This document shows positions 49,909 through 58,296 of a stretch of DNA of 64,000 bases, piece after piece (within the stretch, counting starts at the first letter, position 1; the number at the start of each line of letters is the position of its first letter). This stretch comes from Negativicutes bacterium (GTDB lineage Bacteria; Bacillota; Negativicutes; UBA1444), in assembly GCA_963665275.2 (NCBI GenBank), contig CAXXIN010000012.1, positions 1 to 64,000 on the forward strand, written 5' to 3'. The notes beneath the pieces are model-generated. The model did no database searches. It saw only the letters and a list, made by a program, of their open reading frames with translations, and had not been told where the DNA came from. The translations under genes were made by a program, and so were the position numbers.

Positions 49909-50754
49909 ATGTCCGATGAACCCAACGTTGTCCTTGAGAAATTTCTTCATGTCATGCCTTTACTAGGAGGCATGTTCTCCTCAGATGTGGGTGTCGCTGT
50001 AACCGATCGTGAAAAATATCTCCTTTATAAAAAGGGGCGGACGCTTGACTTGAAAATTGCAGCCGGAACCATGCTCAAACCCGGCACAGCGGTTGTCCGG
50101 GCCATGGAGGAAAACCATCGGGTTGTGGTCCGTGGCGACAGGGCAACTTTTGGACTGCCGTATATTGCAACGGCAGTGCCGATACACGATGAGAGCGGTC
50201 ACGTAGTCGGCGGGGCCGTGATCATCGAGTCCGTGGAGCAACAGGATCAGTTGAAGCAGATGGCTGAAAAGCTCGCGGATACCACCAATACTCTGGCAAG
50301 CACTTCCGAGGAAATTTCTGCCCAAACCCAGGAAATCAGCGCTCTCAGCCGGACGATGTCGGTTGCTGCCGGGGAATCGCAAGGGCGATTGAAGGAAACC
50401 GACGAAGTGGTCGGATTGATAAAAGCGGTCGCCGGTCAAACCAACATGTTGGGGCTGAATGCTGCCATCGAAGCAGCGCGTGCCGGGGAATCCGGTCGGG
50501 GTTTCTCGGTGGTCGCCGACGAAATTCGCAAACTGGCAACCACCAGCGCTGACTCCATCAAAAAAATCGAAGCGACCCTGCGGACGATTCGGGACGACGG
50601 TCAGAAAAATTTCGAACAGTCTAGGCGAATTGACGAAGTGATGCCGCAAATCGCGCAGGCCATCACACAGGTTGCCGGAGCCGTGCAGGAAGTGAACGAA
50701 ATGGCTCGCGGGCTTAATGAGATGGCGGATAATCTGACGAAAGACCAGGCGTAG
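49909..50754 (+). CDS. Soluble (cytoplasmic) methyl-accepting chemotaxis protein, YfmS-like
   Basis: No TM helix; small sensor domain; [34 protein letters not shown]. Confidence 0.9.
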
Positions 50755-52180
50755 GTTTGAATCCACGGCACTGATACACCGCCATTTCCCGAGAAACGTA
50801 GCGATCGTTATATAACAGCGGTCCGATCGGCTCTACTTCAGTAAAGAAGGCGGCCAATTGGGTCGCTTGTGTTTTATCCCCGAAAAAAACCGCGTCACTG
50901 CCGGCAGAAATATTCAGGTCTTTTCGCCAGTAGTCGAACTGTGAAAATCGGGCAGGAGTTAGGATCTGAGCAGCCGGATGTCCGGGCAGGTAGTACCATG
51001 CAAGGGACGCCAGCTTGTAGTCGGAAGCCAGAACCATCGACGTTCCGCTCACATACCGGCCGCCCTCCCGGAACATCACGTCGTAACCCAGCACCTGTCG
51101 TTTCATAACGATTTGCGGCGGCAGGAAACCGAATAATTCCGGTACTTTCAGCAGCAAGGTCAATAAAATGCCCAACACAATTCCCGTTCTATAGATCGCT
51201 TTATAACGCGGCAAGTTGATCCATTTTGCTAGCAAGATGATCCCGGTTATATAGGCCGGCGCCGCCCAGTTGCCTTCCACTCTTTTAAACAACGCCGCAT
51301 AGCCGAAAAAGCCGAGAACCACTAGACAGGGCCACAGCAAAAAAGCCTGACGGTCGTCTGAAATGATCTGTCGAAAATTCTTCCAGCATACATAACCAAA
51401 AAAGAAAAAGAAAATCGGATTCAGGGCAGCAGCCTGCACTCCCAGATATTCGGCAAGAGAAGAAATGTTCAGGTTGCGCTCACCTGCCAGCCCGTGTCCC
51501 AATTGAAAGCGAAAAGAGCTCCAGTCATGGCCGGCATTCCAGACAATGACCGGCACAAATACCAGCAAGGCGAGTCCAAGGCTCGCAAAGAGTTCCTTGC
51601 GCCGCAATTCGCCGCGATGGGACGAGAAGAGCAGAAACAGCAACAGGCCTGGCAACAGCAGCACTGCGGTATACTTGGACAGCACCGCGAATCCGGCTGC
51701 CGCCCCCGCCGCGTAATAGTACCGGCGTTTCGCCTTGAATATCGCCTGGTAGACAAAAAAAACGACCGCCATCCACCCCAGAATCAGGGGCGCGTCAGGC
51801 GTCGCCAAGGTAAACCCCATCTGGGCCAGCGGTGATAACAAAAATATCAGCAAGGCTTTGCCTGCGACGGCTTTACCAAACATATCCGCAGACAAATGCC
51901 AGATTCCCAGGCCGGTTAACGTCGAACAAAATAGAGGAACCAAGCGGATCTGCCACTCCGAATCGCCAAAAATCGTCGCGAGCCGAATCAGCCAGGCGAT
52001 CATTGGCGGATGGTCAAAGTAGGAAAGCTGCAGATGATTGGACCACACCCAGTAGTACGCTTCATCGAAATGCAGCGGCAAAGCGGCGCTATAAAACAGA
52101 TTACCTAAAACGACCGCCGCCAAAATAGCGGCCCAGCGCCGGCTCACGAACCAATCGTGGAGTCCATGCGCAATTTCCAT
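50714..52180 (-). CDS. GT39/ArnT-family (PMT_2) membrane glycosyltransferase
   Basis: [22 protein letters not shown] motifs; multiple TM helices. Confidence 0.88.
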
Positions 52181-52863
52181 ACCATCAACACGGCCTCCAG
52201 GAAAATTTTGCGTGACATTTTCGATTTCCCAGCAGTCCGATCTTCAAAAATGATCGGTGTCTCAACAATTCGGAATCCCAGAGCCTGCGCCCGATAAGTC
52301 ATTTCAATCTGAAAGGAATAACCGTTGGACTTGACTGCATCCAAATCGATAGCCTGAAGAACCTCCCTGCGGAAGCACTTGAATCCACCGGTCAGATCAC
52401 GCAGGGACAGCCCGAGGATTGTCCTGGCATACAAACTGCCGCCGCGGCTGATAAATTTCCGTAGCAATCCCCAGTTTTTCACCCCGCCGCCCGGAACATA
52501 ACGGCTGCCCAAAACCACATCATGCGTCTGAATTGCCGCCAAAAAATCGGGCAGGTACTTGGGATCATGGGAGAAATCGGCATCCATCTCAAAAATGTAG
52601 TCGTAATCACGGGCCAGCGCCCATTTGAACCCGGCAATATACGCTGTCCCCAGACCCAGCTTCCCGGCGCGCTTCAACAAAAACAGACGATCCGGATATC
52701 GCGACTGCATCAGCCCCTCGACGACTTCAAAGGTGCGATCAGGCGAGTTGTCGTCCACGATCAGCATATGGGCTGCCGGATCGGTCCGGGTAATCAGCTC
52801 CAGCAAACTTTCTATATTCTCCCGCTCATTATAGGTGGGAATGATGATTAGATGTTTCGACAA
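52144..52863 (-). CDS. Polyprenol-phosphate mannose synthase-like GT2
   Basis: IIPTYNERENI, VDDNSPD, GLGTAY, EMDADFSHDP, GYSFQIE; TTG start at 52863 with GGAGG RBS. Confidence 0.92.
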   Translation of the reverse strand: MSKHLIIIPTYNERENIESLLELITRTDPAAHMLIVDDNSPDRTFEVVEGLMQSRYPDRLFLLKRAGKLGLGTAYIAGFKWALARDYDYIFEMDADFSHDPKYLPDFLAAIQTHDVVLGSRYVPGGGVKNWGLLRKFISRGGSLYARTILGLSLRDLTGGFKCFRREVLQAIDLDAVKSNGYSFQIEMTYRAQALGFRIVETPIIFEDRTAGKSKMSRKIFLEAVLMVWKLRMDSTIGS

Positions 52864-52865
52864 GG

Positions 52866-53288
52866 CTATCGTTCCTCCCCGTTCGGTTCTTTCCCGCACG
52901 TGCTGTTTCGCTTTTCGCCAAAAGTAAACCGCGAATTCATGGCAAAATTCAAGATGCTGACCAAGCCAATGGAAACGAGCTGTGCCAGGGTCTTGTCCAT
53001 ATCGAATTTCTCGACAAAGGCTCCCAGCAACAACAAATTGAACCCGAGGTTCAGAACGCTGACCCCGAGAAATCGAAAGTACTTGTTGCGCGTGCTGCGA
53101 CTAGCGGCATGTCCCTTGAACGTCCAACGGAAGTTCCAGAAAAAATTATTGGTAACGGCAAACAAAAAGGATACCACGGCTGCCGCGAGATAATACAGAC
53201 CGCCTTGCACTGCGACCGCATACACAGCCATGTTGACCAGAGTTCCTGATAATCCGACGATCGAAAACTTCATGAATCGCTTTAACAA
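52866..53288 (-). CDS. GtrA-family flippase
   Basis: KFSIVG, NNFFWNFRWTF, C-terminal NF...RFTF; four TM helices. Confidence 0.9.
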   Translation of the reverse strand: MLKRFMKFSIVGLSGTLVNMAVYAVAVQGGLYYLAAAVVSFLFAVTNNFFWNFRWTFKGHAASRSTRNKYFRFLGVSVLNLGFNLLLLGAFVEKFDMDKTLAQLVSIGLVSILNFAMNSRFTFGEKRNSTCGKEPNGEER

Positions 53289-53325
53289 AAAGTGGGTCCG
53301 CCTTCTTTACACAAAATTCTTTATC

Positions 53326-53334
53326 ATTATATCA
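53326..53334 (-). promoter_or_regulatory. Extended -10 promoter for the gtrA cassette
   Basis: TGaTATAAT on the minus strand. Confidence 0.5.
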
Positions 53335-53385
53335 CAAGGCTTCGATCAACTGTCAAAATCCATATTTTGCATAGCCTTATTATTA

Positions 53386-53414
53386 TTGATAATTTTTCTC
53401 CGCAGTCATATAAT
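53386..53414 (+). promoter_or_regulatory. SigA-type promoter of the TM1266-aspA-hydF operon
   Basis: TTGATA-N17-TATAAT. Confidence 0.75.
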
Positions 53415-53420
53415 AATGTT

Positions 53421-53545
53421 AATATAGGGTTCCTGAGGGAGAGGGCCTAAAGCCTGACGCCGAGGGATGAACAACGCGGCGCATCAATGGGTGTGTCACA
53501 AGGTTCATCAGCTCCGCGAATTGTGCGGAGTTTTATTTTTTTAAA
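53421..53545 (+). ncRNA. Candidate cis-regulatory leader RNA (unassigned riboswitch/attenuator) ending in an intrinsic terminator
   Basis: Stems GGGC/GCCT, GATGAAC/GTTCATC and GGCGCATC/GGTGTGTC; terminator GCTCCGCG-AATTG-TGCGGAGT plus U-tract before the first start codon; competing pairings to the terminator 5' arm. Confidence 0.65.
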
Positions 53546-53559
53546 AGGGAGCTTGGAAG

Positions 53560-53814
53560 ATGAATTCACGTCTCGGCTTTGTTGGCATCGTTATCGAAGA
53601 TCCGTCCAGTGCACCTGACATCAACAACATCCTCAGCCGACATGGCCAAATCATTGCCGGCCGCATGGGTATTCCCCGTATTCATCACAACGAAGCGGGA
53701 ATCTCAGTCATCACTTTGATTGTGCAAGGAACTACGGATGAAATTGGCGCCCTGACCGGCCAGCTTGGCAACGTGGCCGGTGTTCAGGTCCGGTCTGCTC
53801 TGAGTAACAAATAA
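53560..53814 (+). CDS. TM1266-family iron-only hydrogenase system putative regulator (ACT/NikR-C-like)
   Basis: IAGRMGIP, ISVITLIVQG, IGALTGQLGNVAGVQV pattern; lies in hyd-maturase context. Confidence 0.85.
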   Translation: MNSRLGFVGIVIEDPSSAPDINNILSRHGQIIAGRMGIPRIHHNEAGISVITLIVQGTTDEIGALTGQLGNVAGVQVRSALSNK

Positions 53815-53832
53815 CTTTCGTGGGAGGTCGTC

Positions 53833-55263
53833 ATGTTCCGTATCGAATCCGACTTTCTTGGAGTGAAAAACGTACCGACTGATGCCTACTATGGAATCCA
53901 TACAGTCCGGGCCATGGAGAATTTCACTGTTTCGCGGCAACTGATCCATCCCGAACTGATTCGCGCCATTGCGACAGTCAAGCAGGCGGCAGCGGAAATG
54001 AACATGTCACTCGGGCTCTTGGATTCCCGACTGGGCTCAGCCATATTTCAGGCTGCCGCCGAAGTAGCAGACGGACAATTCGCCGACCAGTTCCCGTTGG
54101 ATGCGCTCCAGGGAGGCGCTGGCACTTCCACCAACATGAACGTCAATGAAGTCCTCGCCAACCGGGCGATTGAATTGTTGGCCGGTGAAAAAGGGGATTA
54201 TTCGCTGATCCATCCCCTAAACCATGTTAACCTGTCGCAGTCCACCAATGACGTCTATCCTACCGCCCTGCGTCTTGCGGCTATCCGTCTGCTGCAGGCC
54301 CTGTCCGAAGCCTGCGCCCAATTGCAGGGTTCTTTGCAGAAAAAAGAGGCTGAATTTGCTGGAGTCCTGAAACTGGGCAGAACCGAAATGCAGGATGCGG
54401 TCCCCATTACGCTTGGGCAGGAATTTTCCGCCTGGGCGGAAGCGATCGCCCGTGACCGCTGGCGCCTCTACAAGGTGGAAGAACGCCTCCGCGAAGTGAA
54501 CCTCGGCGGCACGGCCATTGGAACCGGCCTGAATGCGGAACGAAAATATGTGTTCGGCGTTGTGGAGCGTCTGCGTTCCCTGACAGGCATCGGGCTGGCG
54601 CGCGACGAAAACATGATTGACACCACCCAGAACGCCGACGTCTTTGTTGAAGTATCGGGGCTGCTCAAAGCCTGCGCCTCTACGCTGATCAAAATCAGCA
54701 ATGACCTTCGCCTGCTCTCCTCCGGTCCCCGCGGCGGCTTCGGCGAGATCCGGCTGCCGGATCTTCAGGCCGGCTCTTCCATCATGCCAGGCAAAGTGAA
54801 TCCGGTCATTCCTGAAATGGTTGCCCAAGTCGGCTATCAGATCATTGCCCGCGATCTGGCCATCACGTTGGCAGCTCAGGGCGGCCAGCTGGAACTTAAT
54901 GCTTTTTTACCGCTCATCGCCGCCAATCTGCTGCCTGGGATGGAAGAACTCACACAGGCAATGCGTCTGTTTGCATCCCGTTGCATCGACGGCATTGAGG
55001 CGGATACGGACCGGTGTCGGGCTCATTTGGAGAACAGCGTCGCCCTGATCACAGCGCTCTCTCCGCTCATCGGTTACGACCGGGCTGCCGCAATCGCCAA
55101 ACAGGCACTAAAGAATAACTCCCCCATCAAGAAAGCACTCTTGGAATCCGGTCTGTTTACCCAGGCGGAACTTGATGCTTTGTTGCGCCCGGAGACACTC
55201 ACCCGTCCCGGCATGATCAAAAGGCCGACCGCCGATAAACCAAAGGAGGCCCGCCATGAATGA
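53833..55263 (+). CDS. aspA: Aspartate ammonia-lyase
   Basis: YYGIHTVRA, QGGAGTSTNMNVNEV, SQSTND, GSSIMPGKVNP, GQLELN. Confidence 0.92.
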   Translation: MFRIESDFLGVKNVPTDAYYGIHTVRAMENFTVSRQLIHPELIRAIATVKQAAAEMNMSLGLLDSRLGSAIFQAAAEVADGQFADQFPLDALQGGAGTSTNMNVNEVLANRAIELLAGEKGDYSLIHPLNHVNLSQSTNDVYPTALRLAAIRLLQALSEACAQLQGSLQKKEAEFAGVLKLGRTEMQDAVPITLGQEFSAWAEAIARDRWRLYKVEERLREVNLGGTAIGTGLNAERKYVFGVVERLRSLTGIGLARDENMIDTTQNADVFVEVSGLLKACASTLIKISNDLRLLSSGPRGGFGEIRLPDLQAGSSIMPGKVNPVIPEMVAQVGYQIIARDLAITLAAQGGQLELNAFLPLIAANLLPGMEELTQAMRLFASRCIDGIEADTDRCRAHLENSVALITALSPLIGYDRAAAIAKQALKNNSPIKKALLESGLFTQAELDALLRPETLTRPGMIKRPTADKPKEARHE

Positions 55264-56488
55264 AACCCCACGCGGCAACCGGTTGCATATCGCTTTGTTC
55301 GGACGTCGGAACGCCGGAAAATCAAGTCTGATCAATGCACTGACCAATCAGTCGCTGGCCATCGTATCCCCTATTGCCGGCACCACTACCGATCCGGTCT
55401 ATAAATCCATGGAGATTTTGCCCATTGGTCCTGTGGTAGTTATCGACACCGCAGGGCTGGATGACGTAGGTGACTTGGGATCGTTGCGTGTCGCCAAATC
55501 ATTGGAAGTCTTGCGAAAATCCGATTTGGTCCTGCTAGTGGTTGATGCAGGCGTCGGACTCGGTGAGCCAGAAAAAGGCCTGGCGGAAAAATGTCTGGCG
55601 CAGAAAATCCCCTTCATCCTCGTCTTTAATAAAACCGATCTTCAGGAAGTTTCTCCGGCAACTCTGGAAACGGCAAAAAGCGAACTCGGAGCCGTTGCTG
55701 CAGTGGCCCTCAGTGCGCAGGAACGAAGAGGCATCGGGGAGCTCAAAATCGCCATGGTCCGTCACGCCCCAGCACGGTGGGATACGCAGACCATCGTGGG
55801 AGACTTGTTGCAGCCGGGTGATATCGCCGTTTTGGTCGTTCCGATCGATCTGGCCGCACCCGCCGGACGCCTGATCCTACCGCAGGTCCAGATGATTCGC
55901 GATATCCTGGATCACGATGCCATGGCCTATACGGTTAAAGAACGCGAACTGAAGGAATGCATCGCCAGTTTGAACCGCAAGCCGAAGATCGTCATTACGG
56001 ATTCGCAGGTTTTTCTCAAAGCCGACGCCGATACACCCCCGGATGTACTCCTGACTTCTTTTTCGATCCTGTTTGCCCGCTACAAGGGTGATCTGGAAAC
56101 GATGGTGCGAGGCGCCCGGGCAATTGATCGCCTGAAACCCGGCGACAAGGTTCTCATCAGCGAATCCTGCACTCATCATCGGGTTGAAGATGATATCGGC
56201 ACTGTTAAAATTCCCCGCTGGCTACGGCAGCATGTCGGCGGCGAACTGATCGTCGATCACTCCAGTGGATTGACATTTCCGCAAAATCTTAGTGATTACA
56301 AACTGGTTCTCCACTGCGGCGCCTGCATGACCAACCGTCGCGAAATGCTGGCCCGCATCGTCGAAGTTCAGCAGGCTGGCGTTCCTATCGTCAACTATGG
56401 CGTTGCCATCGCGGCGCTGATGGGCATCCTGAAGAGAGCCTTGTCGCCTTTTCCCCTGTTACAAGAGATACTGGATGAAGACGAGTGA
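55256..56488 (+). CDS. hydF: [FeFe]-hydrogenase H-cluster maturation GTPase HydF
   Basis: GRRNAGKSS, GTTTDPV, DTAG, NKTD, GRLILPQ, ESCTHH...HCGACM (CxH...HCGxC). Confidence 0.96.
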   Translation: MNETPRGNRLHIALFGRRNAGKSSLINALTNQSLAIVSPIAGTTTDPVYKSMEILPIGPVVVIDTAGLDDVGDLGSLRVAKSLEVLRKSDLVLLVVDAGVGLGEPEKGLAEKCLAQKIPFILVFNKTDLQEVSPATLETAKSELGAVAAVALSAQERRGIGELKIAMVRHAPARWDTQTIVGDLLQPGDIAVLVVPIDLAAPAGRLILPQVQMIRDILDHDAMAYTVKERELKECIASLNRKPKIVITDSQVFLKADADTPPDVLLTSFSILFARYKGDLETMVRGARAIDRLKPGDKVLISESCTHHRVEDDIGTVKIPRWLRQHVGGELIVDHSSGLTFPQNLSDYKLVLHCGACMTNRREMLARIVEVQQAGVPIVNYGVAIAALMGILKRALSPFPLLQEILDEDE

Positions 56489-56494
56489 GTAAAC

Positions 56495-56529
56495 AAAAAT
56501 CCCGGAGCATGAAGCTACCGGGATTTTTG
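56495..56529. terminator. Bidirectional terminator
   Basis: AAAAATCCCGG...CCGGGATTTTT. Confidence 0.8.
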
Positions 56530-56553
56530 ATAATCAGGCCACGGTTGATGCTA

Positions 56554-58296
56554 TTATACTTTAAACTGGTTTACCGTCTGCTGCAGGTCGTTGGCGAACT
56601 TGCCCAACTCCCGTCCCGCTGCGGCAATTTCCTGCATTGCAGCCGATTGTTCTTCTGTCGCTGCCGAAACATTATGAGTTTGTTGCACTGCCGTTTGTCC
56701 GATAATTTTCAAATCGTTCATTGCCCCAAGAATGGTAGAATTCCCTTCGGCCATTGCAGCGAAGGACTCGTCAATCTTCCGGACTTGATTCGAAACATTA
56801 GACACCTGCAAATTAATTTCTTGAAAAGATTGACCCGCGCTTCGCACATCATTGGCCCCGGTTCGTACTTCCTTGCTCCCTGCCGCCATGACTGCAACAG
56901 CCCGTTCTGTTTCCGACTGAATACCGCCGATTAACGAGGCAATTTGCTGCGCGGCATGATCTGATTGCTCCGCCAATTTTCGAACTTCATCCGCGACTAC
57001 GGAAAATCCTCGCCCGGACTCACCAGCGCGCGCTGCTTCAATCGCGGCATTGAGCGCCAGCAAATTAGTCTGTCCGGCAATATCCGAAATTGTTGCAACG
57101 ATGTGCCCAATTTCTTGCGACATTGTTCCTAGTTTCGCAACAACTTCCGCTGACTCTCCTACGGTTTTCTCAATTTGATCCATCTGTCGTACTGCTTGTC
57201 CAGCTGCAATTTCACCTTCTGCTGCTTTGCGTGCTGCAACAGTTGAACTTTCGGCAACTCCCGCAGCCTCTCGCGCCAAACGATCAACCTGATTCGCGCG
57301 CTTTGCCACACTTGCGATGACTTCTTCAATCGTTTTATTCTGGCTGTCGGCGCCAACAGCGACTTCGGCAATTGCGGTTGCGACTGAGTTTGCCGATTCC
57401 GCCGATTGCTCAACATTCGCCCCAAGCTGCTCTGCTGACTTGGTCAGCATATTTGAATTTTGACGAATGTTGAGCACCAAGGATTTAATATGCCCTTGCA
57501 TCCGATTCATAGCCGCGCCAACCTCACCAATCTCATCATTGGAAGAAACAACAATCGCCCGGGTCAGATCTCCCTTTGAATACATTGCGGCTCCCTCAGC
57601 CAAAGCTTGCAGTGGCCGCCTTACCGCACGTGAAAGCGTAAGGCTGAGCGCTATGCCGACCACTAGAGCAATTCCCCCAACCCCTGCAGCAACCTTAACT
57701 GCTTCCGCAGCAGCAATCGATGCATCTTCTACGGTTTCCGCCACGTTTTTTTCATCAGCTTCGACGAAGTTTAATATACTTCTTTTTACTGATTGCGCCT
57801 GAGAATTAAAGTTGATTGCCATCGCAATTGCTCGAACCCGCTTGGCCTCAACACTCCCATCAATCACCGCCGAGTCTCGTTGCGCATGACTAGCCGAATA
57901 ATAGTCCTTGACCGCTGGTAACAGCTCACCCGTCAGTTTCATTTTATACTCAATTACTTCTTTTACCAATTCATCAACGCGAGTCTTCTCGCCTTCTTCC
58001 CGCAAAAGTTTTTTCAATTCGATTGCCATATCGCTGATTTTATTTGCGGATTCTTCAGCTTGGCGAGCGTAGTTTTCATCTCCGAAAGCTACCAACCCCC
58101 GCAGACTTGCCAGCATGCCGGCCGCTTCCGCATCCATCTTCATTTCCAGCATCAGTCGACGATTAGTCTCATGAAGCGCTCCAACCTGTTTTTCCGCCTC
58201 ATAGAGCGAATAAAGCGCTATTGCCGCCATGAATCCCAGCAATACCAACATTGCCGCAAACCCGGCGGTTATTTTGGTTCCGATACGCATCTGCAT
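56554..58296 (-). CDS. Membrane methyl-accepting chemotaxis protein
   Basis: Two TM helices, helical sensor region, HAMP (SNDEIG), [18 protein letters not shown]. Confidence 0.93.

Follow-up and report, generated by a model that had tools for sequence, protein, structure and literature searches.

The locus upstream of 53560 raises the question of what a G+C-rich leader does in front of three genes connected with the assembly of the [FeFe]-hydrogenase H-cluster, and of what reads it. The timing of this costly, oxygen-sensitive assembly is hardly known. The TM1266 family, to which the first of the three genes belongs, has a solved structure and has so far been described only as a 'putative regulator'; the leader provides a testable handle on both. 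The window, i.e. the whole stretch analysed, covers 64,000 nucleotides of one contig of a Negativicutes bacterium. The genes behind the leader are the following:

53560..53814, + strand: TM1266-like small ACT-fold protein, 84 aa (PF21699, 89.6 bits; TIGR03959, 93.9 against a cut-off of 60.8)
53833..55263, + strand: aspartate ammonia-lyase-like gene, aspA (Lyase_1 and FumaraseC_C; PRK12273, 674.6 bits against a cut-off of 510)
55256..56488, + strand: HydF, [FeFe]-hydrogenase maturation GTPase (HydF_tetramer, HydF_dimer and MMR_HSR1 domains)

The profile matches (PF21699, Lyase_1 and the HydF domains) bear out the naming of the operon as TM1266-aspA-hydF in the preliminary description. The first gene is placed in the TM1266 family both by exceeding the curated cut-off and by its likeness to PDB 2NZC (E = 1.5e-7). 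The adjoining position of aspA and hydF is an arrangement already present in the consulted parts of Pagnier et al. (2024, J Biol Chem, PMC11736057), in which the ammonium for the dithiomethylamine bridge is proposed to come from AspA. Those passages contain the same coding arrangement and no mention of a leader RNA, and the word 'regulator' occurs 0 times in the main text.

The other maturase genes were sought in the same genome (92.6% complete). The hydE gene (363.5 bits, above cut-off) is located on another contig (L263 822-1898, - strand) with its own promoter and without the leader. After it on the same strand lies a serine-acetyltransferase-like gene (L263 119-931, -), a pairing that hints at a link of H-cluster maturation to cysteine synthesis. 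No HydG above the NCBIfam cut-off was found in this genome, the best match reaching 186.9 bits against 312; hydG may be unassembled or absent. Downstream of the operon, a 149-aa ORF (56485-56934, +) without family match overlaps both the hydF stop and a converging chemoreceptor gene (56554-58296, -), and is unlikely to be a real gene. A glycosylation cluster (50714-53288, -) with GtrA-like, family-2 glycosyltransferase and PMT_2-type mannosyltransferase genes runs divergently from the leader.

The region between the glycosylation cluster and the first start codon of the operon contains the following elements:

53386..53414, + strand: sigma-70-type promoter TTGATA-17-TATAAT, 11 of 12 consensus positions matched
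53386-53391, + strand: -35 hexamer, followed by the 17-nt spacer before the -10 hexamer
53409-53414, + strand: -10 hexamer
53386-53401, + strand: 16-base promoter box (the -35 hexamer and most of the spacer), conserved in sequence
53432..53465, + strand: hairpin 1, three-tier candidate sensor hairpin, the most conserved part of the leader
53432-34 / 53463-65, + strand: outer helix of hairpin 1, 3 pairs (consensus fold)
53437-38 / 53460-61, + strand: middle helix of hairpin 1, 2 pairs (consensus fold)
53443-46 / 53452-55, + strand: inner helix of hairpin 1, 4 pairs, with a variable loop on top (consensus fold)
53466..53509, + strand: hairpin 2, with a base helix that is conserved and an inner hairpin that varies
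53466-72 / 53503-09, + strand: base helix of hairpin 2, conserved
53478-85 / 53490-97, + strand: inner hairpin of hairpin 2, variable
53510..53542, + strand: intrinsic terminator, stem 53510-53532 (9 pairs, 5 G-C, loop of 5) and U tract to 53542
53545..53562, + strand: putative ribosome-binding site, assigned by sequence alone, and the ATG at 53560

The near-consensus promoter, the G+C-rich leader in an AT-rich flank, the helix 53466-53472/53503-53509 enclosing a second hairpin and the full intrinsic terminator ahead of the first start codon had all been noted earlier, and each was confirmed. The G+C content rises from 0.30 in the region of the promoter to 0.55-0.60 in the core of the leader. 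Also the small hairpin at 53443-53455 stood, but the larger hairpin 53432-53465 that encloses it had been overlooked. For the 139-nt leader the folding energy is -49.4 kcal/mol (z = -3.44), and none of the 200 shuffles was equally stable. The three tiers of hairpin 1 are set apart by purine-rich internal loops. In the sequences, CCUGA, 6-7 nt and AGGG can be read in the 5' to 3' direction on each strand of the hairpin, a repetition that makes its helix pseudo-two-fold symmetric. Promoter, leader and intrinsic terminator follow each other, all before the first start codon, in the order of an attenuation leader. Because of this order of promoter, hairpins and terminator, transcription attenuation is the likely mode of the leader, and the leader probably switches the downstream genes on or off. 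Metatranscriptome contigs from two runs overlap the stretch only at 53822-54343, within aspA.

Membership in a known RNA family was assessed with the 4227 covariance models of Rfam 15, a match at the gathering score being taken as membership. Across the 64-kb window there were 0 such matches, and this cmscan, envisaged earlier as the check on novelty, thus yielded no significant family match. At E<=10, the region 53300-53650 gave seven matches, the best of them L10_leader with 16.7 bits (E = 1.6) where its gathering score is 44. The L10_leader, Trp_leader and rimP matches (E 1.6-5.9) were dismissed as weak and resting mainly on the terminator. Twenty related leaders from other families gave 0 matches at E<=0.1, and neither a T-box nor any other known leader model matched the leader in the Rfam searches. 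The resemblances to the glycine aptamer and to P1 of the THF riboswitch that had been pointed out earlier did not hold, as neither RF00504 nor RF01831 was among the seven matches listed at E<=10 or matched at the gathering score in the window. Both riboswitches share a few short purine-rich words with the leader, and the glycine riboswitch has tandem units, as the leader has in other lineages, but their helices and conserved loops differ from those of the leader. No description of the leader was found in the article texts searched, among them the structured-RNA surveys PMC11109978 and PMC8632094, motif lists of this kind being usually placed in supplements. The leader is an undescribed RNA family, absent from Rfam.

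A covariance model (R1) built from ten copies of the leader gave 24 matches in the genomes of the family to which the window belongs, covering 13 of 13 genomes and mostly with two copies per genome. In the 151-genome sample of the class, a single further genome among the 138 others was matched, and weakly. Scanning one genome per species with an exact pattern gave 21 stretches, of which 16, in uncultured Negativicutes assemblies, were confirmed by R1 and five, in G+C-rich genomes of other phyla, were not. The 25 distinct R1 matches included 13 before a TM1266-like gene and aspA, ten before a transporter, one at a contig end and one in another family, where a 26%-identical TM1266-like gene and then an ORF resembling hydG follow. 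The 23 genome copies with readable downstream DNA were accordingly divided between TM1266-like/aspA/hydF (13) and an SsuABC-like transporter, an importer of the sulfonate type (10). A scan of metagenomes (at least 80 loci) added at least 12 R1-confirmed copies, at least seven of them before TM1266-like/aspA genes close to those of the family, at least two before distant pairs (about 50% identity) and at least three before the transporter. One metagenome leader precedes hydG, a 91-aa ORF, hydE, hydF and an aspA-like gene, and no TM1266-like gene was found on that 6.4-kb contig. The 91-aa ORF (L150 3641-3916, +), situated between hydG and hydE, belongs to no Pfam or NCBIfam family.

The RNAalifold consensus and the model alignments agreed on two adjacent hairpins. 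Among 35 copies, 94.9% of the pair cells were paired, compared to 30-49% with the partners slid, and 11 pairs were changed on both sides, a number reached by 0 of 500 shuffles (shuffle mean 5.6). With the 23 genome copies alone, 94.4% of the cells were paired and six pairs were changed on both sides. The double changes within the window's subtype were confined to hairpin 2, where helices 3 and 4 had 4/6 and 6/7 pairs double-changed (95.6 and 89.1% of cells paired), and to the top pair of the inner helix of hairpin 1. The helices of hairpin 1 were nearly invariant in this subtype, with 100% of the cells paired in the outer and middle helices and 97% in the inner helix, and the outer and middle helices showed no double-sided change among the 35 copies. 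Support for these two helices comes from other lineages, in which the same tiers occur with a different middle helix. When 31 copies were folded singly, most showed the three tiers, their middle helices differing in sequence and length, and the middle helix of one related leader type (type A, see below) was found in three compensating versions. Approximately 30 nearly invariant nucleotides, mainly in the internal loops, are flanked by covarying helices. The terminator follows nearly all copies of both operon types. The leader is therefore a real, conserved structured RNA with covarying helices, and the collection of homologues that had been outlined as a check gave a positive answer. With no match in Rfam, homologues that are conserved and covary, and a terminator before the first start codon, the core claim of the preliminary description, an undescribed cis-regulatory leader (riboswitch or protein-bound attenuator) before TM1266-aspA-hydF, was borne out.

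The location of the leader in the window had been noted correctly, but a second copy in the same genome had been overlooked. This copy, on another contig, is 71% identical, has the same promoter box and precedes three transporter genes, for an ABC permease, an ATPase and a binding protein of the SsuA family. This binding protein comes closest to SsuA, with 186.3 bits where the cut-off is 163.5, and resembles PDB 2X26. Assignment to the Sao transporter system was rejected, the permease and the ATPase scoring far below the Sao cut-offs. The transporter copy and the hyd copy have the same hairpin-1 core, as a single effector common to both would lead one to expect. Genes for an ACT-domain-pair protein (L082 8302-8748, -) and a phenylacetate-CoA-ligase-like protein (L082 8766-10142, -) are located upstream of the transporter copy; the promoter and the leader stand between them and the transporter, and both genes are probably unrelated to the leader.

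The promoter box, including the spacer, was conserved before most family copies of both operon types, also where it stands some 40 nt nearer to or farther from the hairpin. The window's genome has just two exact occurrences of the 16-mer, one at each leader-bearing operon. Its position outside the window is as follows:

L002 ~1651-1666 (calculated from contig coordinates), - strand: second occurrence of the 16-mer box, exact match

The restriction of the 16-mer to these two operons suggests further control at the DNA level, and the box may be the operator of a DNA-binding regulator. It is absent from some copies that keep the leader.

Genes matching PF21699 were present in 94 of the 151 genomes of the class and in 137 of the 301 genomes of the phylum sample. 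Upstream regions of such genes, 40 from the class and 20 from other classes, were compared by eye. In the class, 12 of the 40 regions had a leader of type A, with a related hairpin, a simpler 3' side and a greater length, and another 12 had a leader of type B, with tandem units of which the second is close to hairpin 1 of the window. Of the remaining regions two had the variant seen in the R1 match from another family and six had other related forms, and upstream of eight of the 40 TM1266-like genes no leader was evident. Related hairpins were seen also in 13 of the 20 regions from other classes. A loose regular expression gave 28 matches, part of them spurious, distributed over 24 of 65 loci. 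With the filters off, R1 scored only two leaders, from family f8, among the 40 of the class (18.6-19.7 bits). A single model for all subtypes was given up because the middle helix stands in a different register among them.

Separate models were used for type A (R2) and type B (R3). All 16 matches of R2 and all 31 matches of R3 with E<=0.0012 were located just upstream of a PF21699 match; R3 had 19 weaker, noise-like matches elsewhere. Outside the class R3 matched in none of 151 genomes, a model too narrow to indicate absence. The type A and type B TM1266-like genes are followed by hydG, and across the class and other classes related variants stand before TM1266-like genes with hydG mostly next. 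In all five type-B genomes examined hydF was located elsewhere, with no R3 match there. The match counts of R2 and R3 together with the leaderless hydE and the distant hydF show that the leader travels with the TM1266-like gene and not with maturase genes in general, the exceptions being the transporter copies of the family and the one metagenome operon. The TM1266-like gene is directly behind 13 of 23 family copies, 16 of 16 type A copies and 31 of 31 type B copies, counts which speak of linkage only. Type A leaders, for example those at the loci L091, L097 and L119, have a second conserved block of about 50 nt, without match in Rfam, about 60-90 nt upstream of the hairpin.

The tree of 51 TM1266-like proteins was divided into two deep clades (100/100). 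One clade included the proteins of type A and family f8 and the leaderless ones, the other those of type B and of the window's family. The proteins behind the leader of the window's family formed one clade (100/98). The leader variants follow the protein clades. Five genomes of the family carry two TM1266-like paralogues, each behind its own leader type: for one paralogue the leader is of type A (in the examined case with hydG), for the second it is of the window's type, with aspA-hydF. The mean net charge of the proteins was near neutral (+0.4 to +1.6) and did not differ between those with and without a leader, giving no hint of RNA binding. Since eight of the 40 TM1266-like genes had no leader evident by eye, the protein has some role independent of the leader.

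How the hairpins would be coupled to the terminator was studied from the possible pairings with its arms. The segments 53475-53482 and 53438-53441 are present in the window as they had been written, but the pairing of CGCGGCGC (53475-53482) with the terminator arm and the three-way junction closed by GGAG and CUCC proved specific to the window's copy, neither being conserved. The best duplexes between leader and terminator arm used three different leader segments in different copies. Compared to mononucleotide-shuffled arms in 30 copies, the mean z of the duplex energy was -0.07 to -0.35, a test of low power with such short G+C-rich arms, and at most three of the 30 copies passed 0.05, again with shuffles of little power. 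The most common candidate antiterminator register was paired in 88.3% but lacked covariation, as 168 of 500 shuffles reached it. In type A, where ten of 12 copies could be scored, z was -1.35 to +0.56 with none significant in these low-power shuffles. Such tests do not speak against the existence of an antiterminator.

The effector of the leader is tentatively taken to be the TM1266-like ACT-fold protein, an explanation held at somewhat less than an even chance and favoured over a metabolite riboswitch. According to it, 53432-53542, one copy of the leader family, would act by transcription attenuation, with RNA polymerase either stopping at about 53540 or reading on into the TM1266-like gene, aspA and hydF. 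The TM1266-like protein, loaded with a small ligand, would bind hairpin 1 as a symmetric oligomer, and its binding would set termination, presumably by favouring it. The operon of the protein would in this way be under feedback from its own product, and the second copy, ahead of the SsuABC-like importer, would be a target in trans. Among the matches of the other subtypes the cis linkage is strict (47 of 47); this and the two leader/paralogue pairs within one genome argue for such an effector, and a symmetric hairpin 1 or tandem units suit an oligomeric binder. Also the tracking of protein clades by leader variants points the same way, if weakly, as cis linkage alone makes both co-vary. The opposite direction is indicated by the near-neutral charge, equal in proteins with and without a leader, and by the fact that no conserved antiterminator was found; moreover, we know of no ACT-fold protein that binds RNA. 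Three further observations against the protein count at the same time for a riboswitch: leaders occur without a TM1266-like gene in cis (the ten transporter copies and the one metagenome operon), eight of the 40 TM1266-like genes have no leader evident by eye, and the hairpin core is conserved over classes, as riboswitch aptamers are.

Hairpin 1 could thus instead be the aptamer of a metabolite- or ion-sensing riboswitch, in which ligand binding would set termination without a protein; this is a real possibility, held with less confidence than the protein effector. Its ligand might be tied to the chemistry of HydG and HydF or to sulfur supply (for instance cysteine or a different amino acid, an iron species, or an intermediate of the pathway), and hairpin 1 would then represent a new riboswitch class with a pseudo-two-fold pocket sensing a reporter molecule of H-cluster assembly or of cysteine and sulfur. 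The nearly invariant loop nucleotides (about 30) between covarying helices are consistent with an aptamer, as is the control of two operons of different function in the family, including a transporter, a pattern usual for riboswitches. The TM1266-like protein shows no sign of RNA binding, and the SsuA-like binding protein and the serine-acetyltransferase-like gene after hydE are hints of a link to sulfur. However, outside the family the confident R2 and R3 matches precede a TM1266-like gene in 47 of 47 cases and never a gene of another class, the leader is absent from other hyd maturase operons of these genomes, and the gene set names no ligand. Also the architecture varies by lineage, with one or two units, a sliding middle helix and different 3' boxes, and two leader variants coexist in one genome, both of which are unusual for one invariant ligand; the subtypes (the window family's type, type A and type B) may read different ligands. 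Less probable still, and on the whole unlikely, is that another factor (an RNA-binding protein, a tRNA or a small RNA) reads the leader, or that it is a processing or stability element with a partial terminator damping expression, with a DNA-level regulator added at the promoter box. The failure to demonstrate an antiterminator fits a terminator that is always partly active, and the box, conserved with the leader and found only at two operons, makes a DNA-level regulator likely as well. Against these readings, some leader-bearing copies are without the box, neither T-box nor other known leader models gave a match, and the hairpin-1 loops are so strongly conserved between classes that a specific binding partner is called for. 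Attenuation by a leader peptide, translated from an AUG or GUG at the base of hairpin 2 into the terminator, is very improbable. The window has such a readable ORF, from 53467 across the terminator, and 25 of 35 copies have ATG and seven GTG at that place. The remaining three have -TG with an alignment gap, GGC and GCG, so that two copies lack a start codon there, and the distance from the codon to the conserved 3' strand is spread over the three phases (in 18, 9 and 8 of the 35 copies). The leader peptide was disfavoured because no reading frame is conserved across the 35 copies.

The favoured reading, with the TM1266-like protein as effector, has its closest parallels in PyrR of the Bacillus subtilis pyr operon, TRAP of the trp leader and HutP of the hut leader, which are ligand-loaded oligomers binding leader RNA. 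Their binding to a hairpin or to repeats decides between the terminator and read-through. PyrR is encoded first in the operon that it controls, like the TM1266-like gene behind the leader. The present leader differs from these systems in having an RNA motif unrelated in sequence and no demonstrable pair of antiterminator and anti-antiterminator, and the TM1266-like protein has an ACT fold, with RNA binding only proposed. The riboswitch reading has a counterpart in the SAM-I (S-box) riboswitch, a terminator-coupled OFF switch on sulfur genes of Firmicutes. As in the SAM-I type, promoter, structured RNA and terminator precede the first start codon, and several operons per genome, including a transporter, are concerned. 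The leader differs from SAM-I in having only two adjacent hairpins and no multi-helix junction, in its lack of an Rfam match and in a gene range almost limited to operons starting with one small protein family.

The new elements are the transporter target, the correspondence of subtypes to clades, the two leader/paralogue pairs in a single genome and the symmetric hairpin, within a conserved leader that is tied to a TM1266-like gene across many anaerobic Firmicutes. If the riboswitch reading were true, [FeFe]-hydrogenase maturation would have its first RNA sensor in the leader, whose ligand would point to a metabolite controlling the synthesis of the H-cluster. A TM1266-like effector would be nearly as new: it would be the first of a new class of ligand-gated RNA-binding attenuation proteins, and it would give a function to the TM1266 protein family. 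The importer as a second target links hydrogenase maturation to sulfur supply, and its leader copy is a natural trans target, able to separate a protein effector from a cis effect.
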